IMG/VR virus record: IMGVR_UViG_3300046777_000900
Location: 1 to 31,769 of that record
Strand: one strand, 5' to 3'
DNA from: a virus
Taxonomy: Duplodnaviria; Caudoviricetes
Length of the DNA stretch: 31,769 nucleotides
The notes below the pieces were generated by a model that was given only the letters and a program-made list of their open reading frames with translations, had not been told where the DNA came from and made no database searches. Of the stretch, positions 2,429 to 31,622 are shown in pieces. Every line of letters begins with the position of its first letter. Within the stretch, counting starts at the first letter, position 1. The translations under genes and the position numbers were made by a program.

Positions 2429-3568
2429 TTACCTGCCTATGGTTCCCATTTTAGCCCTTGAGCCAAAAGCTTCACCTAAAGATTCATTGGGTTGGGCAGG
2501 TACGCTACCAACAGGTCTGCGTGCGTTTTGTCCTTCTTCAATGATAGCTTTCAATCCCAATGACTTTCCATAATTCACAAGGTCTTTCTCATAGTTTGGA
2601 TTAAGAGCGACTAATGCAATTTTTTGCAATTTAGCCACATCTGGAATAAGCTTTGCTGGGTCCGCCTCTTGCGGATTTACAGAAATTGCTCTTTGCCACT
2701 TTTCTCCATCCAACGCTACTGCCATTAAATTTTCAGGTTTATCAATATTAAAATTGAATTTGCCATTATCTCCTAAATCAATCGCAACTCTTTTGCTTTC
2801 TAGTAAGGATTTTGTGGCATCATGTTCCCTGAAAAACTGGAGAACTTGTTGTTGTTGTTCTGCAAGAACTCGCTCCTGCTCTGCATATTGAAGTTGGTTG
2901 TCCACCTCTTGTGGCCTACTAACCTCTGGTATACGGAACTGTTGCTGTTCATAGATTCTTTTTTGTCTAACTAATTCCGCATCTGCTTCTAACTGAATCA
3001 ATCCAATTTCTCTATCTTCATCAGACGCAAAATCGCTTTGCTTATATCTTGCTTGATACAACTTCTCAATCTTATCATCGCTAAGATTAGGATATTGTAA
3101 TTTCAATTCGTCAAAAACTAAATCAGTGTGAGATACATTATTCCAATCAAAAGCCTTTGCTTCAAGGAACTTATACGCATCACCACCATTTTTTCTAAAT
3201 TCTGCGAAATCGGCAACAAATTCATCATAACCTAGTTCTTTTAAAATTTCTTTAGGGTCTGACTTTCTTAATTGCTCTTTCCAATCAGTTACTTGAACTT
3301 GTGCAGAAGATTGAGATTCTTCAGTGCTATCTTCAACAGATTCTTCACCAAAGCTAGGCATAGAAAATGCTGTTACATTTTCTTCCAATTGAGCTTCAGG
3401 CTCCGTTACAACTGTAGAAGAAGGTTCTTCATTAACTACTGGCTCTGCACTTTCAGCTTGAATAGGTGCGGCAGGCTCTACGGACTCATCTTGAGGCATA
3501 GGAATACCGGTACTCATTCTATAAACTGGTTTTTGTTCTTGTGGTTGTTCTTGTTCTAATTCTGACAT
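2429..3568 (-). CDS. Putative capsid scaffolding protein
   Basis: Very acidic, low-complexity N-terminus and a helical Q/E-rich middle; lies immediately upstream of the capsid gene. Confidence 0.62.
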   Translation of the reverse strand: MSELEQEQPQEQKPVYRMSTGIPMPQDESVEPAAPIQAESAEPVVNEEPSSTVVTEPEAQLEENVTAFSMPSFGEESVEDSTEESQSSAQVQVTDWKEQLRKSDPKEILKELGYDEFVADFAEFRKNGGDAYKFLEAKAFDWNNVSHTDLVFDELKLQYPNLSDDKIEKLYQARYKQSDFASDEDREIGLIQLEADAELVRQKRIYEQQQFRIPEVSRPQEVDNQLQYAEQERVLAEQQQQVLQFFREHDATKSLLESKRVAIDLGDNGKFNFNIDKPENLMAVALDGEKWQRAISVNPQEADPAKLIPDVAKLQKIALVALNPNYEKDLVNYGKSLGLKAIIEEGQNARRPVGSVPAQPNESLGEAFGSRAKMGTIGR

Positions 3569-3622: not shown

Positions 3623-4117
3623 TTAATTTTTTCTCATACCCTTGTCAAAGAATAAAATCTCTTTGTTTTCTTCTGCTATTTTATATTTAGCTAACAAGTC
3701 ACCATACTCACCTACAGCCTTTCTTTGAATTTCCATAAATTGCAATAAGAACTGAGCAACCACACAATCTTCTTCTTCGGCTTCTTGGTAAAACTTCTTA
3801 TACTGATTATACACTTCCAACTCTGTTTCATATCCAATTTCCAAAGAATCACCAAGTGTTTTAATCTTGTCTGTAATTGCGTCAATCTTAGGAACGTCTG
3901 CGCAATCGCCCATGTCGTTCATAAATTCAACAATCATTTGGTAGTGAGTCAATTCCTCTGCACTTTCTGCTAAAAAATATGATTGAGTACCAAACAAACC
4001 TAATCTTTGCAATTGATTTGCTAGGCTTTTCCATAAGTTAGATTGATATAGCTCTACATACAAAGCATCTTGTAGACCCTTTCTCATTTTACCGCTAAGT
4101 AATGATTTAACTTCCAT
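3623..4117 (-). CDS. Ferritin-like protein
   Basis: 164 aa with ELYQSNL, YFLAESAEELTHYQMIVEFM, ETELEV and QFLLQFMEIQ in the spacing of the ferritin four-helix bundle and its ferroxidase ligands. Confidence 0.88.
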   Translation of the reverse strand: MEVKSLLSGKMRKGLQDALYVELYQSNLWKSLANQLQRLGLFGTQSYFLAESAEELTHYQMIVEFMNDMGDCADVPKIDAITDKIKTLGDSLEIGYETELEVYNQYKKFYQEAEEEDCVVAQFLLQFMEIQRKAVGEYGDLLAKYKIAEENKEILFFDKGMRKN

Positions 4118-6530: not shown

Positions 6531-7076
6531 TTAATATAATTCACGTCCTTTAAGCAAATCGTCATAATTCATATCCATCTTTGTATTATATGAAAATCCA
6601 TTATATTGGATGGCTATAAATGGGTTACAAACATAGTATTTTCCCAAATTCGACAATGCCCTATCTATATGCTCATCATCAGGAACACTTAAATATTCAT
6701 CATAAAATCTTTCATTAACTATATAACAATGAAAACCTGTAAATGATTTAACAGAATTGTCATCTAAAATTTCACCTAAATATATCCCACTTAAATAAAT
6801 ATCAAAATCTTTTGGCTTATTTTCCAAAAAATACTTAAAACTATTAGGATTTGTAAACCTAACATCATCCTCCATTATACATATTTCCTTGAGTCCATTA
6901 TCTTTTGCAAACTGAACGCATTGTTTATGAGCTAGATTAATACCTTTCATAACAGAATATTGGTCATGGATAGCCGGAAATATCTGATAATGTCTTATAT
7001 CTTGTCCAATAAACTCCTGCATAAGCCTGTCAAACCTATCGTGAGAATCAAAATTGTGGATAACCGCTATCTTCAC
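6531..7076 (-). CDS. Glycosyltransferase, GT25-like (second copy)
   Basis: GINLAHKQC, ICIMEDDVRF, FDIYLSG, GFHCYIVN, HIDRAL and PFIAIQYNGFS match the GT25 pattern. Its GTG start overlaps the upstream TGA stop. Confidence 0.8.
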   Translation of the reverse strand: MKIAVIHNFDSHDRFDRLMQEFIGQDIRHYQIFPAIHDQYSVMKGINLAHKQCVQFAKDNGLKEICIMEDDVRFTNPNSFKYFLENKPKDFDIYLSGIYLGEILDDNSVKSFTGFHCYIVNERFYDEYLSVPDDEHIDRALSNLGKYYVCNPFIAIQYNGFSYNTKMDMNYDDLLKGRELY

Positions 7077-7876
7077 TTTTCTAAAATCTTAATTATGTTA
7101 TTAAGCGCTCCTTCGTAAGTATAATACTCTTTGTATATTTCACCTATTCTTTCTTGTTTATCAACTATTTCTAAATTAGAAATACTTCCCAAGATTTGCT
7201 CTATCCTATCAGCATCCCTTTCTTCTATTATAATACCAAAATCTCTAAAGTCTAAATCAAAAGGATTAACAAATTCATCAGATATATATACCGGTATGGT
7301 TAAATATTGCATACATTCTGCTATCCTAAAGCTATTTAATCCATAACCCCTAGGGCACAAGCCAAATAAAGATTCTGATATAATATCACAAAACTGGTTT
7401 ATATCATGACCCCTATCTGATATGTAGTAGTCTGGATTCAATATATTAAATACGTGTTCACGGATTGGATGAGTATGCGTTCCAATAAACGAAGCGAATC
7501 TGCGCTTACGCCCATCCCATTCAAAAGAGTGAGGCATACAAAGAAGTGGTATTTCTACGCCCACCTTCTTACTCATGCTAAACTGAAGAACATCTAAGTC
7601 TTTCAGGTCAATAATAATACCGTCATCATATTGGCAAATTGTCCAATACTTTTTATCTCTTGGTAAGTTGTCCACATATTTCTGTAGTTTATCAATAGCC
7701 TGCTTGTCATTGCCATAACTATTATTAACATGGTATGCGGTCCATTGTATTGGCAAATACTCTCTTTCTGTCTGAGGTATATATTGCCTTGTTACCCAAT
7801 CTTCAAAAATAAAAATATTTTCAAAAGGATAAATAGTATTTATCGTTGGTGTAAATTCTGAAGGTACATTTATCAT
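7073..7876 (-). CDS. Exostosin-family (GT47) glycosyltransferase
   Basis: C-terminal SLFGLCPRGYGLNSFRIAECMQYLTIPVYISDEFVNPF is the exostosin/GT47 signature. ATG at 7876 is preferred over the TTG at 7894. Confidence 0.85.
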   Translation of the reverse strand: MINVPSEFTPTINTIYPFENIFIFEDWVTRQYIPQTEREYLPIQWTAYHVNNSYGNDKQAIDKLQKYVDNLPRDKKYWTICQYDDGIIIDLKDLDVLQFSMSKKVGVEIPLLCMPHSFEWDGRKRRFASFIGTHTHPIREHVFNILNPDYYISDRGHDINQFCDIISESLFGLCPRGYGLNSFRIAECMQYLTIPVYISDEFVNPFDLDFRDFGIIIEERDADRIEQILGSISNLEIVDKQERIGEIYKEYYTYEGALNNIIKILEK

Positions 7877-7878
7877 AA

Positions 7879-8502
7879 TTATTTTTTTATCCAAATAGCA
7901 TCACCCCAAGAGTGATAATGTGAGGCCCACTTTGTTTCTACTCTGTGAAATCCAAAAGGCAAAAGAAATTCATCTAACTCCTCTACCATAGGACAACCCT
8001 TATAAGTTTCCTGTCTATTAACTTCTAAGTACAATAAATCAAATTGAGGTAAAACACTTTGAGAGCCTTTCAGAACTTCTAGCTCGTAACCCTGAGTATC
8101 AACCATAAATAGATTGTACCATGTTGGGAATCCAATGCTATCCAATGTAACTATCTTAACAACTTGTGGGTCACCATTAAAAATTACTTCAGAGTGTTGT
8201 TCCAAATGCACAAATGGCTCTAGCAGGCTGTTGCTTTGTCCTTGATTAGTCGTATCTACACACATAACACCCATATCTTCTTTACTTCCGATAGCTACGT
8301 TTTCTAATTTGACGCTAGGGTTACCTGCAAATTTTTGAACTAAAACTTCAAATGCTTCTTTGATTGGCTCTACATATAAGAATCCTTTTAGACCACAATC
8401 AATGTAATCGTCATGTTCTTCAGCCCAATGAGCTCCAACGTGAACAACTCCATTCAATTTAATATCATACTTATCAAGTACGGGTTTTAATGGTATTAAC
8501 AT
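7879..8502 (-). CDS. FkbM-family SAM-dependent methyltransferase
   Basis: VVHVGAHWAEE, YVEP, VTLD, MVDTQGYELEVLKG, LYLEVN and WGDAIW. ATG at 8502 lies just after the epimerase stop. Confidence 0.9.
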   Translation of the reverse strand: MLIPLKPVLDKYDIKLNGVVHVGAHWAEEHDDYIDCGLKGFLYVEPIKEAFEVLVQKFAGNPSVKLENVAIGSKEDMGVMCVDTTNQGQSNSLLEPFVHLEQHSEVIFNGDPQVVKIVTLDSIGFPTWYNLFMVDTQGYELEVLKGSQSVLPQFDLLYLEVNRQETYKGCPMVEELDEFLLPFGFHRVETKWASHYHSWGDAIWIKK

Positions 8503-8503
8503 A

Positions 8504-9493
8504 TTATACTTTTTGATTAATCCAGTTATATAATTTCTCCATTCCTTCACGAAGTGGTCTTGATGGTTTCCATCCTAACTTTTCTTCTATTAGTGTATTG
8601 TCAGAATTTCTACCACGTACTCCAATAGCATTTGATTCTACATTCTTTATACTTAAGTTCTTGCCAGAAATATCAATAACCATTTTGGCTAAGTCATTAA
8701 TAGCAATCATTTCATTTGAACCAATGTTAACAGGGTGAACATAATCACCATGCAATAATCTCATTACTCCTTCAACAGCTTCATCTATAAAAAGAAAAGA
8801 CCTTGTTTGCTTTCCATCTCCCCATATTTCTATCTCACCACCTTCTTCAGCAGAAGCAACTTTGTAACACACAGCAGCAGGTGCTTTTTCTTTACCATTG
8901 TTATAACATGATTCAGGTCCGAATATGTTATGGAATCTACAAATTCTAACATCTAAACCATAGTTCCTTCTGAATGAATCAAATAGTATTTCACTAAATA
9001 TCTTTTCCCATCCATAAGGTGAATCAGGATTTGCAGGGAAACAGTCACTTTCTTTTAAAGCTGCAACATCTTCCCTATCCTGTATATGCTCAGGATATGC
9101 ACAAGCTGAAGATGAAAATAATATCTTCTTTACTTTATTCTTAGTGCAATAGTGAACCATGTTTAGATTAACCAATGCAGAATTATGCATTACGTTAGCA
9201 TCATTATCACCTGTAAATATATATCCAGCACCGCCCATATCAGCAGCCATCTGAATAACTAAATCAAAAGACCCATGTCCACCATAAATATCACTTTGGT
9301 TTGGGGCAAACGTAACTCTGCTTACAAGCTCTGGATTTCTTAAATCACCGACTACAAAATGGTCTGCTTCCGAATCCGAGTATTCTGGTCTTTTTAAATC
9401 AACACCTCTTACCCAATAACCTTCTTTCTTTAATCTTTTTACCATGTGGCTGCCAATGAATCCACCTGCGCCACAAACTAATGCTGTTTTCAT
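8504..9493 (-). CDS. gme: GDP-mannose 3,5-epimerase-like extended SDR
   Basis: GAGGFIG Rossmann motif, AADMGGAGYI, SSACAYPE, YGWEK, RFHNIFGP, EKAPAA, EIWGDGKQTRSF and GVRGRNSDN all match the GME subfamily. Confidence 0.88.
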   Translation of the reverse strand: MKTALVCGAGGFIGSHMVKRLKKEGYWVRGVDLKRPEYSDSEADHFVVGDLRNPELVSRVTFAPNQSDIYGGHGSFDLVIQMAADMGGAGYIFTGDNDANVMHNSALVNLNMVHYCTKNKVKKILFSSSACAYPEHIQDREDVAALKESDCFPANPDSPYGWEKIFSEILFDSFRRNYGLDVRICRFHNIFGPESCYNNGKEKAPAAVCYKVASAEEGGEIEIWGDGKQTRSFLFIDEAVEGVMRLLHGDYVHPVNIGSNEMIAINDLAKMVIDISGKNLSIKNVESNAIGVRGRNSDNTLIEEKLGWKPSRPLREGMEKLYNWINQKV

Positions 9494-9495
9494 TT

Positions 9496-10083
9496 TTATT
9501 TATTTAGTTTTAAATACCATTGTTTTCTAAACCACCAAACTCCAAAATCATTCAGAGTTGTTTCTGATTGCAATACATTTTCAGGATTAAAACTCCTGTC
9601 GCCAATATCATCTCTTACAAATACTTTAGGCACAACTTCTTCAACAGCTCTACGTACTTCATCTGCATTATAGTCATGCCCGGCTAATATGTATTCATCT
9701 TTAACTTTTGGGTACCAAGCTCTAATCTCTTTTTTAGTTTCTTCGTACGTGTGTGATGAATCTATATAGCAAAAATCCAAGTATCCATCATTAAACATCT
9801 GCGATGCTTCTAAGCTACCAAAAGGAACCACTTCTATAAATTCACCTAATCCACTTTTAATTATGTTCTGGTAAATGGTTTTCATTTGTAGGTACTTACC
9901 GTAATCCATATTATCAACCATATACAACTTAAACTTTTTACCTAGCCTATTTAACTCTTGAGCTAAATACAAAGCACTATCACCATCTGCAACCCCAACC
10001 TCGCAAACCTTGCAATCGTTTGGTAGCTCTTTTGCTATTCTTTGATAGAAGTGCGGAAAATCAAACATTAAAAAATCACTCAT
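9496..10083 (-). CDS. Class I SAM-dependent methyltransferase (Methyltransf_24-like)
   Basis: VCEVGVADGDSA, LDFCYIDSSHTYE and WYPKVK...LAGHDY. Confidence 0.88.
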   Translation of the reverse strand: MSDFLMFDFPHFYQRIAKELPNDCKVCEVGVADGDSALYLAQELNRLGKKFKLYMVDNMDYGKYLQMKTIYQNIIKSGLGEFIEVVPFGSLEASQMFNDGYLDFCYIDSSHTYEETKKEIRAWYPKVKDEYILAGHDYNADEVRRAVEEVVPKVFVRDDIGDRSFNPENVLQSETTLNDFGVWWFRKQWYLKLNK

Positions 10084-10085
10084 AA

Positions 10086-10823
10086 TTACATCTTTATAAA
10101 ATAAGGTGGAACAATATCGCTAGTATCTAAACCATCCCATCCGGGACTAAACCAAAATGTAGGGAATATAACTTTCTTGTTTTCGTTTCTATTGAGCCAT
10201 CCGCCCCACCAACTGAATGTACTTGGGCTACATATCTGATGCTCGCACCAACTCATTTCTAATAGGTCTGATACCTCATCAGTGTTACCAGAAAATTCGC
10301 AATCATTTCTGTGCTTAAAGTTCTCCATACACCATTCAATGTCATCAGAAAAGAATTTAAACTTGTATCCCGGGAATTCAGCCATAGCTTTTTCATACCA
10401 TTCTACTTTTACTTCAGGGTGCTTATCCCTTAATTGAACGTAATCTCCTCTACGGACATGGCAAGCAACATATCCTTCTTTTTTATTGTATGGAAAATTA
10501 AACAAATAAAGTATTTCGTTTCTGTATTCGTCAAAGTATTTAGCAGTTTGCCTATAACCCTCTATTGAAATATTCTTATCTCTCCATTCTTCATTAAAAG
10601 GCAGTTCTTCATAACTATGTTTACCTTCCCATAAATTAATCTTCTCTAAGTTAGGATTATAATTTGGGTTAACCAAGTGTAAACAATATATAGGATTCCA
10701 TTTAGGATGGTCGCTATGAGATGGCACAGTAAAATCTAGGTCATGCTTTAGTGCATAAGCTATAGCAGTCGCTGCTTCAAAGCACCAGTTACCCATTCTT
10801 CCAGCGTTTGTAAATGTTACCAT
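10086..10823 (-). CDS. GT11 alpha-1,2-fucosyltransferase-like protein
   Basis: GRMGNW, IEGYRQ, CHVRRGDY (GT11 HxRRxD motif), FFSDDIEWC and STFSWWGGWL. Confidence 0.9.
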   Translation of the reverse strand: MVTFTNAGRMGNWCFEAATAIAYALKHDLDFTVPSHSDHPKWNPIYCLHLVNPNYNPNLEKINLWEGKHSYEELPFNEEWRDKNISIEGYRQTAKYFDEYRNEILYLFNFPYNKKEGYVACHVRRGDYVQLRDKHPEVKVEWYEKAMAEFPGYKFKFFSDDIEWCMENFKHRNDCEFSGNTDEVSDLLEMSWCEHQICSPSTFSWWGGWLNRNENKKVIFPTFWFSPGWDGLDTSDIVPPYFIKM

Positions 10824-10825
10824 AA

Positions 10826-10935
10826 TTAAAAGCCCCCTACGACAAGACGGCTTAATTCACGCAGGGGGGCTTGAACGTCTTGTTTTCGGGGGTATGTCTT
10901 ATTTAACAACTAACCATTTATTTATGAATTAAGCG
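10826..10935 (-). ncRNA. Candidate structured leader or small RNA of unknown class
   Basis: The only large gap in the cassette. It is locally GC-rich and has three complementary pairs: 10925-10934/10850-10859, 10876-10883/10842-10849 and 10860-10872/10830-10841. A -7-like box (TATTTTAG, 10939-10946) precedes it. Confidence 0.5.
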
Positions 10936-10952
10936 ATACTAAAATAATTAAT

Positions 10953-11648
10953 TTATTTCATATTCCTCAATTCTTCTTCAACTTTTTGATAAAATTCTGG
11001 GTCTATGTTACAATTTAGCTTGTAGTGTGACTCATCATGAACCAAGTGTTCATATTGCATACCCGGCACTATGTACATTTTATTGCCCCACTTAAACCAA
11101 TTCATGTTTTGATATATACTATCTGAGCTATGTGGGTCCGTATTTGCATCCCAAACCTTTACATAATCCATTGCAGAAACAAAATAATTCATGCAATTCA
11201 AACAGGTGGCAAAGAATGGTCTATCCATATATTTTGCTACATTTTCCTTAGATATTGTTAACCCACTAAATTCTGTGTAATCAAATAATGGTTTTGCAAA
11301 ATCAGGAGCTAATATGGTTTTCTTATCCCAATTTTGAGAATATATCTTATCTATGTATGTTTCATCTATCTGATTATCGCTATCTAAAAGTATACAATAA
11401 TCAGTTGGTGAATAACTAACGGCTACGAATTTATTTGCATAACAGTCCTGATTTGTGACGTTTCTATAAAGCTTAACCTTACTTAACTTATCACATTCTT
11501 CTTTAAGTCTATTATACACATCAATATCACTAGCATCATCTACTATTACAATAGTGTCTATTCTAGCGTCATCATAAACTTTTTTAAAGCTATTTAGGGT
11601 CATTTCTACCCTATTCCAAGTTGGGATACAAATACTTATCTGTTGCAT
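10953..11648 (-). CDS. GT2-family (GT-A fold) glycosyltransferase
   Basis: ISICIPTWNR, IVIVDDAS and CILLDSDN (DxD motif). Confidence 0.9.
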   Translation of the reverse strand: MQQISICIPTWNRVEMTLNSFKKVYDDARIDTIVIVDDASDIDVYNRLKEECDKLSKVKLYRNVTNQDCYANKFVAVSYSPTDYCILLDSDNQIDETYIDKIYSQNWDKKTILAPDFAKPLFDYTEFSGLTISKENVAKYMDRPFFATCLNCMNYFVSAMDYVKVWDANTDPHSSDSIYQNMNWFKWGNKMYIVPGMQYEHLVHDESHYKLNCNIDPEFYQKVEEELRNMK

Positions 11649-11650
11649 TG

Positions 11651-12274
11651 TTAAAGGTTTGATTCAGAAAATTTTTGATAATATCGCTGTTCTATAAATG
11701 GTTGCCAATTTATTTCAGTTCTACCTATATCACTATACCCCGGTCTTTGCGTACAAAGTAATGGGTATGTTATATATGTATTACCTTTTGGTTGTACCGT
11801 TTTTACTACACAGTTGTCTATAGGGGCTTCTAGTCCTGCTGCTAATATCTCCTTCATTCCGTCAAGAGATACAGCCCATGCGTGTGTTGCAAATGCCATA
11901 TCTAATAAAAGTAAATTATTTGTAGGCTTTGCCTTGAAACCGTTTGTGCATTGGGCCCCTAAATACAATATCTGCCAAGTAGGAGGCAATTGCTTTACAA
12001 CCTGCTCCATAGTGTCATTAGGGTTACCGCAGCTATCTACAAACATTGCGTCATCTTCAAATATTAAAACAGATTTTAAATTAGCTGCTACTGCATCTCT
12101 GAATATCTTTTCTACAGTAATCCTTAATCCTTCCGCTCCATTGTCATGCGGAGTAGCGTTAACTAACTCGTATGGTATACCCCACTTATAAAGTTCTTCA
12201 GCTATCTGTAATAGCCGGTCAGTTCTGCTTGGCAGATTTATAACAAGTATTTTATCAAAAAAATCTGTCCACAT
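11651..12274 (-). CDS. Glycosyltransferase, GT25-like (first copy)
   Basis: FDKILVINLPSRTDR, VLIFEDDA, LPPTWQILYLG, THAWAV and PLLCTQRPGYSDI. Its start overlaps the terminase stop (TAATG). Confidence 0.85.
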   Translation of the reverse strand: MWTDFFDKILVINLPSRTDRLLQIAEELYKWGIPYELVNATPHDNGAEGLRITVEKIFRDAVAANLKSVLIFEDDAMFVDSCGNPNDTMEQVVKQLPPTWQILYLGAQCTNGFKAKPTNNLLLLDMAFATHAWAVSLDGMKEILAAGLEAPIDNCVVKTVQPKGNTYITYPLLCTQRPGYSDIGRTEINWQPFIEQRYYQKFSESNL

Positions 12275-14328: not shown

Positions 14329-14640
14329 TTACTTTCTGCTTTCAGCAATGGTTTCTACAAATGGTTTCTTAGCAACGTCTTTTTGCTCATCACCCGTAAC
14401 ACCGGCAGATATACCCAAATCCCTAATAGCAGTTGATATGCTTGCGCTATCATTCCATAAAATCTTCAATCTTTCAAACGTCTTGTCGTTCTTATCTTCT
14501 AATTGTAAATGGGATAAGTTTGTCTTATTTAACAAATCCGCCATTTCATTAGCTTTACGATTCAAAGCGTAGAATAACTTAGCCGCTCCATTTTGTTCGT
14601 AAAGTAGTAGTTTTTGCTTTAGTTCTTCAAGTGTTTCCAT
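14329..14640 (-). CDS. Putative terminase small subunit
   Basis: 103-aa helical protein directly upstream of terL. The call rests on position and size only. Confidence 0.5.
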   Translation of the reverse strand: METLEELKQKLLLYEQNGAAKLFYALNRKANEMADLLNKTNLSHLQLEDKNDKTFERLKILWNDSASISTAIRDLGISAGVTGDEQKDVAKKPFVETIAESRK

Positions 14641-14643
14641 GTG

Positions 14644-14865
14644 TTAATTTAGTATTATACCCGGCAATCCTACATTATACTTACCTCCTTCATTATGGTC
14701 GCAAGCTGTTAAGGATATTACCGTAATTTCATGATTATCATTAGTTAAATCCAAGACAGCGCTATCCTCTATACATATAGGGAATAGCGTGTCTTTTGCA
14801 AATATATACATTTCTGTGTCACCATCAAGGTCTGCTGTCAATTCTCTGAAATCATCTAATGTCAT
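14644..14865 (-). CDS. Small acidic hypothetical protein
   Basis: 73 aa, fills the gap exactly, with a TAATG overlap with the giant gene. Confidence 0.7.
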   Translation of the reverse strand: MTLDDFRELTADLDGDTEMYIFAKDTLFPICIEDSAVLDLTNDNHEITVISLTACDHNEGGKYNVGLPGIILN

Positions 14866-17800
14866 TAGTCAAATCTTTTACGTGCTCTTGATAATCTTTT
14901 ATCCTCCATTTTTTCTTCTCTAGTTTTCTTTTCCTTACCAAAAAGCTGCTCTTTTGACAATCTTGTTGCTTCGGAAGCTATTGACTTTTTAGCCTTCTTA
15001 ACTTCTTCTTCTGTCATATCTTCAACCTTCTTAGTAACCACATTTCCCTTATCTAATGTAAGATTAAATTTTGACTTACCATCATATAATCTCCTGATTT
15101 CTTTTTCTATATTAGCATCTCTTAATTTAGCTAATTCATCAAATTCTTTTTCATTAATTAACCTTCCGCCATCTTTATGATTCTTGATAAGCTCAGGATT
15201 CATCTCATCTGAGTTTAACATTCTTTCTAATGAACTTTCTAATGATTCTTTATTTGCCTGATTAGCATAACTTCCATAACCAATACCTAAAATATTTGGA
15301 GCAAGAACAGTAGCTAATGAAGTAATGCCTTCATCTTTTAATGCTTCCGCAAAATCATCAGCATACATTGGATAAGCTTCTAATACTTCATAAGGGTCAA
15401 AATCTTGATTTAAAGTATTCTTACCTAAAGCCATATTAACGGCATATCCTGTGTTTGGAGCCAATTTATTTCTAAAAAAATTAAACAATGAACTACCAGC
15501 TCTTTCTATTTTTTTCTGTTGATTATATTTATTATCAGTAAATCTTGAATATAATGCAGATGTCATTCTAAAGAATGTCCTTAAATAAGCCGCCTTACCA
15601 CCAGTAATGTCATAAACTTTATCACCAAATCTAATTTGTAAAAAATCTGGTTCATCTGGGTCCATCTCTACTTTAGCTCCTGCGGCAGACGCAGCAAGCA
15701 TTATTCCTGCTGTAGTAGTAACGTATGATAACATATCTTTCATTACTTCTTTTCTAACGCCCGGAGGGAGTTTGTAATATTTTACAGGATTTAAGCTATT
15801 AATATTTGCAGCCATTAAACGAGCACCATAAAAAGTATTACTTACAACCTTATTAGCTTTACCTGATTCTAAAAAGCTAACTAATTTACCACGACCTGTC
15901 ATATTCATAACAAGGTCAGCCATTTTCTTGTACGCTTCAGGGTCCGATTGCCTAGTAATACCCTGCTTTAATAATTGTTTTTCATACTTTAAATACAATT
16001 CATACCTAGCCGTATTTAAAAATCCATCAGCAGCTCTTTGAGATGCTAATAATGGCTCTGTAATTAATTGTCTTACAACCGGTATCTTGATACCGTAAAG
16101 GAAACTTTTTTGAAAATCTTCGTTTCTTTCTTCATTCTTTAAGGCATCAAGTTCATTGAATTTAATACCATCTTCTAGCATTTTATTGTATTCGCTGGAA
16201 TTATGTATGTCATACATCAAGCTATTATACTTCTTGTCACTAAATGCGCTTTTCATTTGATTACCAAAAGCTTTAGAAAAAACATCCCATTTTCTAGGAT
16301 TAAAAGCAATTAAAACGCCTTGACGTAAAGAAACAGATAAGTCAAATGCGGTTTGCATAACCCTTCTAATGCCGGTAATTTGATTAATATGGTCAAGTGC
16401 TTTTTCTGTTTTGCTCATTTTTTTATAAGCATCCTTTTGTCTTTCTGCCTCTATTTGCCTTTCCATTTTAATAACCCTATCCTTTAATAGCTGAGTTTTT
16501 CTATCTAACTCAAGTTTAGGTGGGGCTTGCTTTTCTTCTAAATATCTTTTATTTTTAATATCATCCTGAAGCTTTTCTATTCTCTTTGTGAGCATCCTTC
16601 TTTTAGAAGCAAGTGCTTCATCTTCGCTTTTTGATGCAAACTCTGATTCAGTAAATTCTTGAGGTACACGGTCCCTTTCTTTATTAAGCCTTTTTACCTC
16701 TTTTATTTTATCTTCAAGCTCTAATATTCTATCGTTCTTTTTAATTTTTTGAGCAGGATTCTTTTCCTTCTCAATACCCTTTCTAACATTTTCAAGTTCT
16801 TTTAATAAAGCAGCCTCTTTTTGTAATAACCTTAATTCTTCAGTTTTTTCATTTCTTGTTCTTGGTTTTGATTCATCGTACTCACCGTTAAATATATCTA
16901 GTATATCTTTTTTAGTTATACCATCTACTATATCTTTAAACTCAGCATAAGTATCATTTACAATATCATCTAGCTTATTAGCACCTTCTTCTACCAAGCT
17001 TTTAATATATTTTTTAACGTGAGGTGATACGGCTTTCAATTCTCTCAAGTAAGGAACAGCTACAGCGGTAACCCCTTCTTCTCCAGTTCTTAACTTTCTC
17101 AAAGCTTCACGTGCATCAGCTAGTGATTGCTTTCTCTCAATAACATATTCTTCTCTTGTCTTTTTAGCAGCTTTTTTAGCGGCAGCCCTAGCTTTATTAA
17201 CTCCCATTTCGGCAATTAATTTAGCATTAGCTTCTTCGCTTTTTTGTAACGCTTCTTTTAAAGCATTTTTTTCTTTTTGAAGCTCCTCAAATATTCTAGC
17301 TTGGTCTTTTATTTCAGATTCTGTAAATGGATAACCTCTATCATTTTCTCTCATTAATAAGAAATCAGGTAAAGTATCTTCTACCTGTTTAACTCCTTTT
17401 CTAGCAACTAATGATTGACCGACTAATCTACCGCCAACATTGTTACTAAGTTCCATTATTCTTTTAAACTCAGCTAGATTTTCAGGTGTTGGATTTGCAT
17501 TAATCTTTGCTTTTGCAGATGCTATAATATTAAGCATCATTCTTTGCTCAACAGGCGTAGGTATATCGTTTTTCTCGTATTTATTAATAAGCTTTTTTGC
17601 GGCATCAGGGTCTTTAGCTAACCTTTCCTTAGCTTCAGCATCCCACTGTTCAACTGTTTCTGGACTTACTTCATATTCTGGGAAACCTAATTCACGTGCT
17701 ACCTCATTTAATTGCTCATGGGTAATACCAATTACTTCGCCTTCCTCAGTACCCTTGGGTTGTGCTTCTTTTGTTGTTTTGGCTTTGCCTTCTCCGGTAG

Positions 17801-20800
17801 GCTCATTCCCTTGCTTTCCTTGTTCCACTCGTTTACGTCCACCCCCTGTGCCTCCATCTCCTTCCTGTTTACGTTGAAGTACTTCTGCTGCGCTTTGCTT
17901 TTGTACGGCATCTTGTATATTTTTAATTGTTTTTGAATCAAAATTACTATCTACTATTTCAGACATTTGGGCTTCTGTTAATTCATCTGCCAATGGCTTA
18001 AATTCTTCAGGTAGATTGTTTCTTACAAAATCCTTTTTCTTTTTATTAGATTTTATTTTTTCGTATTCTGCCTGTCTTTCGCTTTTAGTAGGTTCAGACG
18101 GTTTAGCCTCTGAAGGAACTCCTTCTTTTGCTCCGGCTTCAGTTGGTTGAACCTTTCCTTCAGGTCCTGCTTCTGTTGTTTCGTATTCATAAAGTAAATT
18201 TTCTACGTTATCTAATAGGTCTTGTTCTTCTTCAGGAGTAAGTTTTGATTCTTCATCTAAGAATTTATTCAATGCAACCTCATCCATTGGCTCTCCAACA
18301 ACTTCTTTTTCAATACCCAATTCAGCTCTAATATCAGCCAATTTAGGAGCGAATCCACCTCTACCTTTATCATATAAAGGGAAAGCGTCCTCTGCAATAC
18401 CTTTTTCTAAGGCATCTAAATATTTATTAGCACGCTTGCTTGGTATACCTTCATTAATATCCTTAATAGCTGCTTCTACTTGAGTAGCACTCATTCTTTT
18501 TCCAGATTCAGATTCAACATCTAAAAATACTCCTGAATCAGTAAGTTCTTCATATACTTTTTGAGTATTTATATCTCTATCTCGTAAGGTTTTAGCATTT
18601 GGCTCAACAACAGCTTCACCATCGGCTTTGTTATTATATCTAACTTTTGTAGGTCTACCTGCTTTATTAGGCTTAGTTACAGCATCTCTTTCGGTATCTA
18701 TTGTTAAACCATTCTCTCTTGCCTTAATTCTTAAATTATTTAATTCAGCTCTACCTTCTGCACTATTCTTATAATTTCCACTTTTCTTAAAATAAGATTC
18801 AGCAGCTTGAACTATTTCATTATCAGATACCACTTTATCAGAAACCTTAGTGTCTTTTTGTCTTTGTCCAATAGACGCTAATCTTTCCGCTTCTGTTTTA
18901 CCGCTTAATGTAACTATAGTTTCCCCTTCTTTTTGAGGAGGCTCTTGAGATGACAATAGTTCTACAGTTATCTTTTGTTCTGACGGCTTCTCTAATAAAG
19001 GAGATATTAACTTATCGTATTTATTATAAACTTCATCAAAAGCTTTTATATCTTCTTCATTAGTTAGCTTGGCTCTATCTACCTTACCATCTACTCTATA
19101 TTGTTCTGCATTTGGTATTTTAGAATCAAGTTCAGCTTGTTCTTCTGCTCTTAGTTGTTCTACAGTCTTTGCTTCAGTTGGCTTTTGTTCTAATTCTAAA
19201 GGATTTTCTGAACTTTGTTTTAAATCTTTCAAAATTGGTTCTAGCTTTCTTTTAGCCATATCCATAGCATCTTGCTCACTATAGCCATCTCTAATAAACT
19301 CTTTTGATAATTCTTTAAAAACGTCTATGCCTCTGTTTTGAGCTTCTTTTACAGATTCCCTTAACTTCATACCATCAGAATAAGAAGAAGTTGGATTACC
19401 AAACATTGCATCCTTATAGTCTTTTATTATTTCTGAATCCGTTAAGTCTTTTACATTTTCTTTTGAATATTTATTAGTAATTGATTTTAATACCCTAGCA
19501 TCAGAACGCTCAATATAAGAACCAAACCCACTTGGCTGTTCTTTATCTTTTTTAATTAAATTATCAACAACTTCATTAACCCTATCTAATGGAGCATCAA
19601 AAACACTTCTCCATTCTCTTTTTTCAAGTTCTTTATCAATATCATTAAACTCTTTATTTTCCGGAGTTCCTGATTTTGAACCTTCAATTTCTAATTGTCT
19701 TTTTTCTAATTCTGATTCTGTAAATTTAGATAAATCTTTAACTTCTTCTGTTACTTTAACTTCAGTAGGAGCAACCTCTCCTTCCATTACAGGTTCTTTA
19801 CCTGCATTAGCATCTGGTCTATTTTGATTAAACTTAACTTCTGCTAATTCATTTCTAAACTTCTCTGCATTATCTTTTGCCTCTCTTGCTTGAGCCTCAA
19901 GTTGAGTTCTTTCATTTGGGTCTTGAGATTGTTCTGCTTGTTGAGATAACTGAGAAAATAAATCTTCAGATTCTTTTATTTTATTATCTAAATCTGTCTT
20001 TGCTTTTTCAAATGGATTTAAAAGTTTGTTTATTTCTTCTGCCTTTTGTAAAAACTCTTTTTTAGCACTATCAGGTAGGTCGCTTGCTTTAAATTCTGCA
20101 AATCCATCATTATTATTAATAACCATGTCAGCAACCTGCTTAACACCAGCAGCTCTACCAAGAACACCGGCCTCTGCCGTATATTGGGCTTTCTTTTGCA
20201 AATCGGTAGTTTGTCTTGCTTTTTTAGCGGCTTCAAGTGCTCTTAATTGAAGCTCATCAGCGCTACCCTTTGAATTATAAACTTCAACGATACTTTCAGG
20301 AGTAGCATCTACAAAGTTAGATATAGCAACACCCTGCTTAACAGCTAAAGTTTCTTTTATTGCCCTATTTAATTCTGCATTAGATTTAATATTTTCCGCT
20401 GCGCCTTTTAATCTAAACAATGCCGCAACACCTGTTCCATTCGCTATTTCCTCACCCGTTGCCGCCCTTCCTTCTAATGCTGCATTAGCAAACGGACTTA
20501 TTATACCATAAGCAAGAACATCTGTACCTAAATTAACTAGCTCTTTAGCGGCCATTCCTTTTACTCCGGTCAATCCTATTTTTTCAGCCTGAGTCATTAT
20601 TGATTTTGTAGCCAAATTACTACCAGCTCCAAGGATTGCCATTTCCATACCCGTTGCCATACCACGACCAGTTCCTTTAACACCTTCTAACGCAGCTTCA
20701 CCAATATCTTTTCCTTCTTTTCTAGCTTCACCATATCCAGCTAAACCTTCTTTAGCCATCATGTATTTGGTAAAATTATTAAATAACAAGTTACCAGTTT

Positions 20801-21464
20801 TAGCTAAAAAACTTGCACCTTGAGCTAACTTAGCTTCTGGTAACAATGCGGTAGCTGCAATATCTGGAGCAAAACTAGCAACAGATGATACTGCCTTACC
20901 CCAAAATGTATTTGGTAACGGATTATTGGCAATAACTTGCTGCATCCTTTCTTGATTACCATGCAACCCTCTGATTACATTACCAAATGGGTCTAGTTCC
21001 CAAGGAGTAGGAGCAGCTTTTTCTGTTTCTGTTCTTGTAGATGGCACATTAGGAGCATACGGATTTGCGGCTTGATAAAAATCTTTAGCCAATGTAGTAG
21101 CATTTGCTGCTAAATCAGTACCAGCTTTCTCAAAATTAGCAAAAACATTCTGAACAATATTTGACCATTTACCTTCAGGAGCAGCAGGCTTTGCAGGTCC
21201 TTTAGGTATAGATTTACTAATCTCCTTTAAAAAACTATTATCAGCTAATGAAGCTCCTTGCTTTAAAAAATCAGGCTGACTTGGTAATGGTGATGGTGTA
21301 ACCGAAGATACTACAGGAGTAGATTTTTTTTTTAAACTACCTCCAAATTCAGAAAATGGATTATCTTCTTTTTGTTTTATATTACCACCAAATTCAAGAA
21401 AAGGATTTTCTTGCTTTTGACCTACATTACCATCAGATTCAGAAAAAAAACTATTATCTTCCAT
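14865..21464 (-). CDS. Giant (2199 aa) probable internal virion/ejection protein
   Basis: Last of three genes of increasing size after the tail genes. It has N-terminal NPFxEFGG repeats, an A/G-rich amphipathic region, long coiled coils and a C-terminal helical domain with a hydrophobic stretch (YVTTTAGIMLAASAAG). Confidence 0.7.
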   Translation of the reverse strand: MEDNSFFSESDGNVGQKQENPFLEFGGNIKQKEDNPFSEFGGSLKKKSTPVVSSVTPSPLPSQPDFLKQGASLADNSFLKEISKSIPKGPAKPAAPEGKWSNIVQNVFANFEKAGTDLAANATTLAKDFYQAANPYAPNVPSTRTETEKAAPTPWELDPFGNVIRGLHGNQERMQQVIANNPLPNTFWGKAVSSVASFAPDIAATALLPEAKLAQGASFLAKTGNLLFNNFTKYMMAKEGLAGYGEARKEGKDIGEAALEGVKGTGRGMATGMEMAILGAGSNLATKSIMTQAEKIGLTGVKGMAAKELVNLGTDVLAYGIISPFANAALEGRAATGEEIANGTGVAALFRLKGAAENIKSNAELNRAIKETLAVKQGVAISNFVDATPESIVEVYNSKGSADELQLRALEAAKKARQTTDLQKKAQYTAEAGVLGRAAGVKQVADMVINNNDGFAEFKASDLPDSAKKEFLQKAEEINKLLNPFEKAKTDLDNKIKESEDLFSQLSQQAEQSQDPNERTQLEAQAREAKDNAEKFRNELAEVKFNQNRPDANAGKEPVMEGEVAPTEVKVTEEVKDLSKFTESELEKRQLEIEGSKSGTPENKEFNDIDKELEKREWRSVFDAPLDRVNEVVDNLIKKDKEQPSGFGSYIERSDARVLKSITNKYSKENVKDLTDSEIIKDYKDAMFGNPTSSYSDGMKLRESVKEAQNRGIDVFKELSKEFIRDGYSEQDAMDMAKRKLEPILKDLKQSSENPLELEQKPTEAKTVEQLRAEEQAELDSKIPNAEQYRVDGKVDRAKLTNEEDIKAFDEVYNKYDKLISPLLEKPSEQKITVELLSSQEPPQKEGETIVTLSGKTEAERLASIGQRQKDTKVSDKVVSDNEIVQAAESYFKKSGNYKNSAEGRAELNNLRIKARENGLTIDTERDAVTKPNKAGRPTKVRYNNKADGEAVVEPNAKTLRDRDINTQKVYEELTDSGVFLDVESESGKRMSATQVEAAIKDINEGIPSKRANKYLDALEKGIAEDAFPLYDKGRGGFAPKLADIRAELGIEKEVVGEPMDEVALNKFLDEESKLTPEEEQDLLDNVENLLYEYETTEAGPEGKVQPTEAGAKEGVPSEAKPSEPTKSERQAEYEKIKSNKKKKDFVRNNLPEEFKPLADELTEAQMSEIVDSNFDSKTIKNIQDAVQKQSAAEVLQRKQEGDGGTGGGRKRVEQGKQGNEPTGEGKAKTTKEAQPKGTEEGEVIGITHEQLNEVARELGFPEYEVSPETVEQWDAEAKERLAKDPDAAKKLINKYEKNDIPTPVEQRMMLNIIASAKAKINANPTPENLAEFKRIMELSNNVGGRLVGQSLVARKGVKQVEDTLPDFLLMRENDRGYPFTESEIKDQARIFEELQKEKNALKEALQKSEEANAKLIAEMGVNKARAAAKKAAKKTREEYVIERKQSLADAREALRKLRTGEEGVTAVAVPYLRELKAVSPHVKKYIKSLVEEGANKLDDIVNDTYAEFKDIVDGITKKDILDIFNGEYDESKPRTRNEKTEELRLLQKEAALLKELENVRKGIEKEKNPAQKIKKNDRILELEDKIKEVKRLNKERDRVPQEFTESEFASKSEDEALASKRRMLTKRIEKLQDDIKNKRYLEEKQAPPKLELDRKTQLLKDRVIKMERQIEAERQKDAYKKMSKTEKALDHINQITGIRRVMQTAFDLSVSLRQGVLIAFNPRKWDVFSKAFGNQMKSAFSDKKYNSLMYDIHNSSEYNKMLEDGIKFNELDALKNEERNEDFQKSFLYGIKIPVVRQLITEPLLASQRAADGFLNTARYELYLKYEKQLLKQGITRQSDPEAYKKMADLVMNMTGRGKLVSFLESGKANKVVSNTFYGARLMAANINSLNPVKYYKLPPGVRKEVMKDMLSYVTTTAGIMLAASAAGAKVEMDPDEPDFLQIRFGDKVYDITGGKAAYLRTFFRMTSALYSRFTDNKYNQQKKIERAGSSLFNFFRNKLAPNTGYAVNMALGKNTLNQDFDPYEVLEAYPMYADDFAEALKDEGITSLATVLAPNILGIGYGSYANQANKESLESSLERMLNSDEMNPELIKNHKDGGRLINEKEFDELAKLRDANIEKEIRRLYDGKSKFNLTLDKGNVVTKKVEDMTEEEVKKAKKSIASEATRLSKEQLFGKEKKTREEKMEDKRLSRARKRFD
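17732..17911 (-). CDS. Nested small basic protein (MPYKSKAQ..., 59 aa) in the +1 frame of the giant gene
   Basis: ATG at 17911 with an A-rich leader and an exact TAATTTTG box at 17939-17946. The sequence resembles, from memory, stand-alone phage MP(F/Y)KSxAQ proteins. Confidence 0.65.
   Translation of the reverse strand: MPYKSKAQQKYFNVNRKEMEAQGVDVNEWNKESKGMSLPEKAKPKQQKKHNPRVLRKAK
17939..17949 (-). promoter_or_regulatory. Intragenic -7 promoter box TAG-TAATTTTG
   Basis: Exact TAnnTTTG match with the same TAG prefix as the intergenic boxes at 23722-23732, 30498-30508 and 31612-31622; 27 nt before ATG 17911. Confidence 0.55.
18053..18190 (-). CDS. Possible second nested small basic protein (45 aa), same +1 frame
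   Basis: Hand translation gives MNTKQQKQDLKERFNQLKPEQKKEFLQRLNRLNLLKAKDRQNTKK*, with an amphipathic helical pattern and an AT-rich leader. Confidence 0.4.
   Translation of the reverse strand: MNTKQQKQDLKERFNQLKPEQKKEFLQRLNRLNLLKAKDRQNTKK
21339..21410 (-). repeat. Tandem peptide repeat ENPFLEFGG / DNPFSEFGG at the N-terminus of the giant protein
   Basis: Residues 19-27 and 34-42, with a degenerate third copy (DNSFFSESDG) at residues 3-12. Confidence 0.7.
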
Positions 21465-23721: not shown

Positions 23722-23732
23722 TAAAATTACTA
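23722..23732 (-). promoter_or_regulatory. -7-like promoter box TAG-TAATTTTA upstream of the ejection genes
   Basis: Intergenic 11-mer identical to 30498-30508; 20 nt before ATG 23701. Confidence 0.55.
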
Positions 23733-30497: not shown

Positions 30498-30508
30498 TAA
30501 AATTACTA
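30498..30508 (-). promoter_or_regulatory. -7-like promoter box TAG-TAATTTTA upstream of groES
   Basis: Intergenic, identical to 23722-23732; 15 nt before the ATG. Confidence 0.55.
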
Positions 30509-31611: not shown

Positions 31612-31622
31612 CAAAACTACTA
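31612..31622 (-). promoter_or_regulatory. -7 promoter box TAG-TAGTTTTG
   Basis: Exact TAnnTTTG match in the AT-rich gap after ssb. Confidence 0.6.

Follow-up and report, generated by a model that had tools for sequence, protein, structure and literature searches.

Can DNA that is read as a linker within one very large phage protein carry a second gene in another frame, and, if so, which of the two frames came first? The question is raised by a 31.8-kb viral record (IMG/VR IMGVR_UViG_3300046777_000900; Duplodnaviria, Caudoviricetes), analysed over its full 31,769 nucleotides and here called the window, which is estimated to be 43% complete and in which every called gene lies on the minus strand. 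Inside its giant gene of 2199 codons, a first-pass annotation made from the sequence alone had proposed an overprinted gene of 59 codons, here named S, with its own promoter. The best explanation, to which we assign a probability of about 0.8, is that S is probably a functional gene concealed in the giant's +1 frame. Ribosomes would initiate internally at the S ATG and make a basic protein, predicted to form three helices, and ribosomes making the giant would read the same DNA as a flexible linker or spacer between two modules.

The 59-aa peptide was reproduced exactly by reading the minus strand from the ATG at 17911 to the TAA at 17732. Its start lies 3553 nt into the open reading frame (ORF) 21464-14865 and it covers host codons 1185-1245, so that S is nested wholly within the giant's ORF, on the same strand and in a shifted frame. 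As had been claimed, the host frame over the overlap is a low-complexity linker, reading DAVQKQSAAEVLQRKQEGDGGTGGGRKR, and the overlap is richer in GC than its surroundings (49.4% versus 34.2% for the whole giant). By itself an open frame is weak evidence: away from overlaps, stops occur at 0.073 per codon in the +1 frame of host genes of this kind, and 262 of 2177 blocks of 30 codons contain none. Chance is excluded for S because of its homology to called genes (E ~1e-14). Three further +1 ORFs of at least 30 aa in the giant had no counterpart in relatives. An antisense 145-aa ORF over the overlap (17440-17877, plus strand) was rejected as a gene, its open length being 51-114 codons in the six closest relatives.

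Free-standing homologues, which the first-pass annotation had expected, were found. The S query matched 62 called proteins of 45-103 aa and an S profile matched 951 representatives at E<=0.001. In 130 distinct viral contigs (133 loci), 98 copies were not nested, being 91 small genes and 7 N-terminal parts of longer ORFs; 31 were nested in the same frame as in the window, and the one remaining contig carried S under a 162-codon ORF in the other frame. The shadow frame was stop-free over 42 codons in just one of 66 free copies and typically held 4-6 stops. In nested copies the host frame is open across the overlap, and in the window's giant the downstream module is without a nearby Met, which would fit translation of the outer frame as well. 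Shorter relatives of the MPF type occur as separate genes in Synechococcus phage S-CBS2, in Streptomyces phage FlowerPower, where the homologue is gp48, and in two further phages of GenBank; in tblastn against GenBank phages MPF-type queries matched, and the S peptides of the window and of locus L019 were both without a match. A second copy was seen in none of 50 genomes chosen for holding S, 18 of them at least 90% complete, so the nested copy is the genome's only one. The word overprinted did not survive this distribution: overprinted frames are restricted in distribution by the criterion given in PMC8227390, and the inner frame is widespread, with 98 of 130 contigs non-nested. Judged from its occurrence, S is likely the older frame and the host linker the newer, S having been engulfed rather than overprinted.

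The first-pass annotation had also held that the DA(V/I)Q(K/E)QS linker is the shadow of S, and this was borne out by a motif scan for 21 bases that read D/N-A-V/I-Q-K/E-Q-S in one frame and M-P-Y/F-K-S-K-A in the next, a pattern which determines the first seven codons only. At least 120 stretches were found, and S was nested in 114 of 120 among the matches listed. Of these 114 listed copies, 72 lie in hosts of at least 300 codons and the other 42 in frames below that length, most of them truncated; all have an inner ORF of 37-68 codons. The hosts include a second family, missed before, of at least 65 acidic genes of ~400 aa between portal and major capsid, which would place them in the scaffold position; once the overlap is masked they show no similarity to the giants. 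Among terminase-picked loci, which were not chosen for S, S was nested in 32 of 47, the 32 representing 18 distinct proteins and some of the other 15 being truncated. Among scaffold-picked loci, for which the query was built from carriers, the count was 25 of 80. All 68 of 68 Elemovirus records in GenBank match S beneath a giant "structural protein", the nested copy being unannotated; in NC_055853.1 it occupies 52379-52507, within gp18. It had been suggested that giant ejection genes commonly hide small basic genes; large virion-module genes do so often, and "ejection protein" is for the giant a presumptive label.

Selection protects the S frame more than it protects the giant's own sequence. 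When suppression of synonymous variation was examined, as the first-pass annotation had suggested, purifying selection was found on the small frame. In giants (13 disjoint pairs) the S frame had a ratio of nonsynonymous to synonymous differences per site (pN/pS) of 0.37 (0.26-0.45) and the host frame one of 1.40 (1.07-1.85), a host value above 1 meaning no visible constraint and nothing more. Over the first 42 codons of seven close relatives, the variable columns number 12, 6 and 2 at host codon positions 1, 2 and 3, and thus fall mostly on third positions of S. In all but one of 325 pairs, which are not independent, the S protein was better conserved than the shadow. In three groups of scaffold-position hosts, with the bases fixed by the search pattern excluded, pN/pS was 0.29, 0.25 and 0.40 for S and 0.61, 1.09 and 1.49 for the host; in the scaffold's ordinary C-terminal domain, used as a control, the same statistic was reversed (0.90 versus 0.24). 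Relatives that are 93-98% identical gave a small-frame value of 0.26 (0.00-0.72; 3 pairs). These ratios come from disjoint pairs of existing sequences with multiple hits uncorrected and are not branch-wise rates.

Table 1. Positions in the window of S, its signals, its host gene and the features compared with them.
Feature	Position	Strand	Remarks
Nested small gene S	17732..17911	-	59 aa, net charge +10, isoelectric point 10.2; +1 frame of giant; MP(Y/F)KS family
S leader	17912..17938	-	A at -3 and -11 to -13; unstructured, no Shine-Dalgarno
Candidate internal promoter box TAGTAATTTTG	17939..17949	-	contains TAnnTTTG; limited to this clade
Intergenic TAGTARTTTT box	23723..23732	-	comparison set for nested box; others 30499-30508, 31613-31622
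Second nested gene U	18053..18190	-	45 aa, basic, net charge +9; +1 frame of giant
Host giant gene	14865..21464	-	2199 aa; downstream of virion structural genes, upstream of terminase
C-terminal module of giant	14889..17744	-	residues 1241-2192; 26-28% identity, E 1e-53 to 1e-63, to separate gene of relatives
Module-swap point	17732..17733	.	blastn DNA identity with relatives ends at S stop codon

The A-rich leader described in the first-pass annotation is present ahead of the S ATG (Table 1). Scored with a matrix trained on 367 unambiguous gene starts, it is the best of the 102 +1-frame ATGs in the giant, none scored higher in a comparison with 98 of them, the start region is unfolded (minimum free energy -0.4 kcal/mol), and only 4 of the 60 columns upstream of S vary among seven close relatives. 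AT-rich nested leaders scored above the median of other +1 ATGs in 67 of 72 distinct cases. In GC-rich nested copies (47-69% GC) a Shine-Dalgarno pairing of -6.3 to -11.8 kcal/mol was found in 8 of 8, equalled by at most 4 other +1 ATGs per gene. From the quality of the leader and the alternation between A-rich and Shine-Dalgarno types, independent initiation at the S ATG appears very probable.

The promoter claimed for S stood in part. The box TAGTAATTTTG lies at 17949-17939, with 27 nt separating it from the S ATG. The motif TAGTARTTTT matches five times in the window against 0.75 expected, a number reached in 0 of 100 shuffles; on the coding strand three of the five lie between genes, and the other two are the S box and an antisense match at 14605. 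In 18 related loci the density is 1.21 per kb in intergenic DNA and 0.026 per kb otherwise, and of the 10 genic copies there, 5 are the S leader. The Bacteroidota sigma-ABfr promoter is described as having a -7 element TAnnTTTG, a -33 element TTTG and a start 4-5 nt downstream (PMC6847099). The S box holds such a -7 element, TAATTTTG at 17946-17939, a motif which is common (28 copies on the same strand); no -33 TTTG occurs in the 35 nt upstream of the box. Among nested copies the box is confined to the window's clade, and one close relative has an altered first base. A sigma-70 scan remained at chance level (3 found versus 2.0 expected). The intergenic enrichment and the -7 element thus speak for the claim, and the missing -33 element and the restriction to one clade speak against it; an internal promoter for S in this clade, with this box as its candidate, can be put forward only tentatively. 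Without it, initiation of S would occur on the long late message.

A second nested gene, here named U, was also missed by the first-pass annotation (Table 1). It ends 141 nt upstream of the S start and has a weaker leader (rank 9 of 102). In five close relatives 6 of 7 variable sites are synonymous in U yet alter the host. Diverged homologues of U are nested in L001, where one replaces it at the same place, and in L409 and L515, and in L016 and L017 they lie near the end of the first module. A free copy of U was not found, the five loci recovered being four close relatives and L515 (nested). U would be a second passenger of the same kind as S, and both sit at the junction of two modules. Relatives lacking S at this site have there other +1 ORFs common to several genomes. 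In the scaffold linker the alternative to S is a family named T, which fills the slot in 22 of 73 parsed loci, 3 more being scored as both. It has 184 called homologues, is nested in 75 of 77 parsed loci and shows a pN/pS of 0.14 (0.08-0.21); the peptide is basic and ~40 aa long (e.g. L293:2780-2902), with weak similarity to DUF7230 and PHROGs 6310, 18092 and 2701. Further +1 ORFs of 39-80 aa shared between genomes occur in the giants of L011, L023, L024, L025 and L393, and in L401/L409, L406/L407, L013/L036/L040, L034/L049, L048/L054 and L381/L382; they are candidates for extra nested families.

The giant itself, without a Pfam or PHROG match in family scans, has a mosaic build, with one N-terminal and one C-terminal module. 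The latter is homologous to a separate gene of ~1020-1040 aa in L011, L016, L017 and L025; used as a query, the giant's C-terminal part recovered just three close relatives. Since the host frame has no Met between residues 1167 and 1309, the C-terminal module is likely made only by read-through of S, and the open frame and the lack of a Met for the downstream module together point to ribosomes of the giant reading across it. In three relatives, L002, L005 and L006, the modules switch exactly at the S stop codon, blastn identity ending at 17732, 17733 and 17733, respectively. Engulfment could have come about through a fusion of two modules that enclosed an already existing small gene. The +1 frame would be tolerated since a reading of K/E/Q-rich codons from one base earlier yields a linker that is hydrophilic (E/G/Q/K), and since most stops in it can be lost through changes that leave the S protein as it is. 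Thereafter the conserved DNA of S may be where crossovers that swap modules take place. On a terminase tree of 48 phages, a quick version with long-branch warnings and no clade testing, at least 9 changes in the location of S are needed. G045, with a free S, and G028, with a nested S, are near-identical sister genomes on that tree, and because their S proteins differ, the difference in location points to a module swap.

Several observations weigh against the reading of S as a working, engulfed gene. No S match was found in three near-complete relatives nor in Maribacter phage Panino, so S is not universal. Decayed-looking +1-frame remnants of S lie at the scaffold N-terminus in L311 and L291, one with an early stop. 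In one scaffold group the host frame is constrained too (0.61; 0.35-0.93). The effect of the leaders is modest, just 9 of 72 AT-rich nested leaders exceeding the 95th percentile, and no more than 11 of the 32 giants and 8 of the 66 scaffolds have the S leader as their best. Part of the conservation upstream of S may come from a host-frame helix that it has in common with L084 and L008. Six RNA runs contained 6-10% of the sequence words; contigs from four of them, selected with this very stretch, are scattered over many genes among the pieces listed, and two cross the promoter region without an end there. A genome with free S between two modules was not seen, and in split genomes S comes after the second module. 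The structure model of S found no match with Z>=2 among PDB representatives and none with E<=0.001 in BFVD, which leaves the function without support from fold or family.

That model has helices at residues 6-14, 16-21 and 26-33 followed by a K/R-rich tail (predicted local distance difference test 82.7, predicted template modelling score 0.53). As to what the protein does, among the 91 free small copies 60 have a terminase, portal or head gene no more than 2.5 kb away and 19 have a giant as neighbour, and the nested hosts are scaffold-position or giant genes. Long proteins that carry S N-terminally have DUF6321 (9 of 62), ferritin, NUDIX or SET domains. Because of the position of the free copies and these N-terminal fusions a head-associated role is taken for S; a late head-associated protein, nucleic-acid-binding or cargo-leading, is on present sequence evidence about an even prospect. 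As an observation apart, in L028, L050, L092, L099, L123, L125 and L127 and in P0075-P0211, S forms the N-terminal 45 aa of K-x-A-rich proteins of 200-1000 aa; the phages are mostly large, and the proteins often end in DUF6321 and are possibly processed head cargo.

The strongest alternative, less probable than the head-associated role and still a serious one, accepts S as a real nested gene and has its product act on the host cell or on regulation (nucleic-acid or ribosome binding, counter-defence) and not in the head. In its favour, some complete genomes do without S, and unrelated basic peptides can replace it at the same site. Giant hosts carry the polyvalent-protein conflict domains LPD1, LPD38, ART-PolyVal and ddrB-ParB: LPD or PolyVal domains were found in 4 of 15 other giant hosts scanned (L167, L072, L101 and L119) and not in the window's giant. 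Against 12 of 91 free copies away from identified head or giant genes, however, stand 79 of 91 that adjoin terminase, portal, head or giant genes, and the fusions have S at the N-terminus of long proteins with 305 K-x-A against 224 expected, which may resemble processed cargo.

Three other explanations concern whether S is made by its own start at all. It would be quite unlikely that the S frame is reached by +1 ribosomal frameshifting, giving a fusion of the N-terminal module with S and no initiation of its own. P0138 does run in frame from a giant-like N-terminus into S, where it ends (an assembly frameshift or a natural fusion), and A-runs precede the S ATG. All 32 of 32 listed nested copies nevertheless start ATG-CC, though the searches partly selected for that, the GC-rich copies have a Shine-Dalgarno at initiation spacing, nearly all fusions have S N-terminal and the same peptide is a stand-alone gene elsewhere. 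Less likely still is a fossil, swallowed, unexpressed and persisting as linker DNA. The decayed-looking copies in a few scaffolds would fit it, but small-frame pN/pS is well below 1 in all groups, even among the 93-98% identical relatives, no stop occurs before codon 37 in the 114 nested copies among the matches listed, and no second copy could supply the function of S. That the conserved thing is a host-protein motif or an RNA or DNA element with the +1 ORF as by-product is hardly credible. It would fit a region whose DNA is conserved and at which recombination occurs, but the substitutions are at third positions of the small frame, where they change residues of the host, and the S protein is also found where the shadow frame is full of stops.

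Returning to S as a working gene, a wider generalisation falls a little short of an even chance: acidic linkers of giant virion-module and scaffold genes in podophages of Bacteroidota and other hosts would be a slot for older, interchangeable basic genes (S, U, T and others) that keep their own starts, move between free, fused and nested states and anchor module crossovers, S being a portable head-cargo module.

Family searches with S in Pfam, PHROG and PDB sequences gave nothing informative. PHROG 1375 matched 13 of the 28 members of alignment A2 weakly (best E 6.7e-5) and the window's S protein not at all. The 99% profile match between A1 and A2 is partly circular, as A2 includes MPY-type rows. 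DUF3008 (PF11450) was the nearest named Atlas cluster (0.87), a lead that was set aside, the window's S having no match at E<=1 (cut-off 24 bits). PHROG 1375 and DUF3008 are, like S, small basic phage proteins, both families of uncharacterised function. Matches of A2 to designed beta-propellers were rejected as repeat-summed noise of 2.5-3.7 bits per stretch.

Known embedded genes resemble S in part. Lambda Rz1 is a small gene contained entirely in the +1 frame of Rz; two-component spanin genes of this kind may be embedded, overlapping or apart, and the inner one escapes annotation (PMC6139136). Rz1 is always paired with a functional partner, and that survey found no family that mixes embedded and separated members; S, unlike Rz1, occurs on its own, as part of a fusion, or embedded, the last at many positions in two or more unrelated families of hosts. 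S was rejected as an embedded o-spanin of the Rz1 type, having no Cys and no hydrophobic signal, within a 2199-aa host. Viral overprinting such as phiX174 E in D likewise has a same-strand internal +1 overlap, and disorder in one frame eases constraint, but there the nested frame is new and narrowly distributed, whereas S is widespread and constrained over an unconstrained host linker (PMC8227390). As in the out-of-frame remodelled genes (ORgenes) of E. coli, a protein segment derives from the alternative frame of another gene family, for which out-of-frame fusion was proposed (PMC8788219); here, in contrast, the donor gene survives whole and under selection within the composite, and several donor families show the pattern. 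GndA in E. coli gnd is also a same-strand frameshifted microprotein inside a larger gene, experimentally shown and lying in a constrained enzyme gene, whereas S lies in a linker and has free-standing homologues (PMC11230408). The case departs from these embedded genes in three ways: the inner frame is the constrained and likely older one, hosts and passengers are several and unrelated, and a single family occurs free, fused and embedded. Published work on the S family or its arrangement was not found in a search that left supplements and most subscription journals outside. Elemovirus proteomics was likewise not found in the literature, PMC7077304 dealing with other matters than these phages.

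The arrangement bears on annotation, since gene callers drop such ORFs and searches of annotated proteomes could not find nested S, as the 68 Elemovirus records illustrate. It reverses the usual rule for overlapping genes, the nested gene being the likely older one and the host linker a by-product, and explains a recurring "motif" of giant phage proteins as the shadow of S. That a single family is found free, fused and nested, with differences down to the level of sister phages, makes it testable how embedded architectures arise, and a cultured phage-host pair exists in Elemovirus on Flavobacterium sp. BAL314. Should the wider generalisation hold, abundant aquatic phages would have a hidden gene layer, and genes could fuse in a way that leaves the one lying between them intact.

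Elsewhere in the window lie a portal (phrog_6547), a large terminase (phrog_6681), three virion structural proteins, GroES, a ferritin-like gene and a glycosyltransferase cluster. The terminase matched 85 GenBank records at <60% identity, 84 of them Flavobacterium, Cellulophaga or Maribacter phages; together with leaders that are A-rich and lack Shine-Dalgarno sites (PMC6847099), these matches suggest a host among the Bacteroidota. A 73-aa ORF at 14644-14865 (minus strand), between the giant and a 103-aa gene preceding the terminase, is shared only by the closest relatives. An acidic 379-aa gene (2429-3568, minus strand) precedes the probable capsid gene, in the scaffold position, and is without an S copy, as the window genome has one S match only. 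Glycosyltransferases, methyltransferases and a NAD-dependent epimerase are clustered at 6531-12274 (minus strand), inserted between terminase and portal. The ferritin-like gene (3623-4117, minus strand) follows the portal in the window and is found between the two halves of the split giant in L011, L016, L017 and L025.

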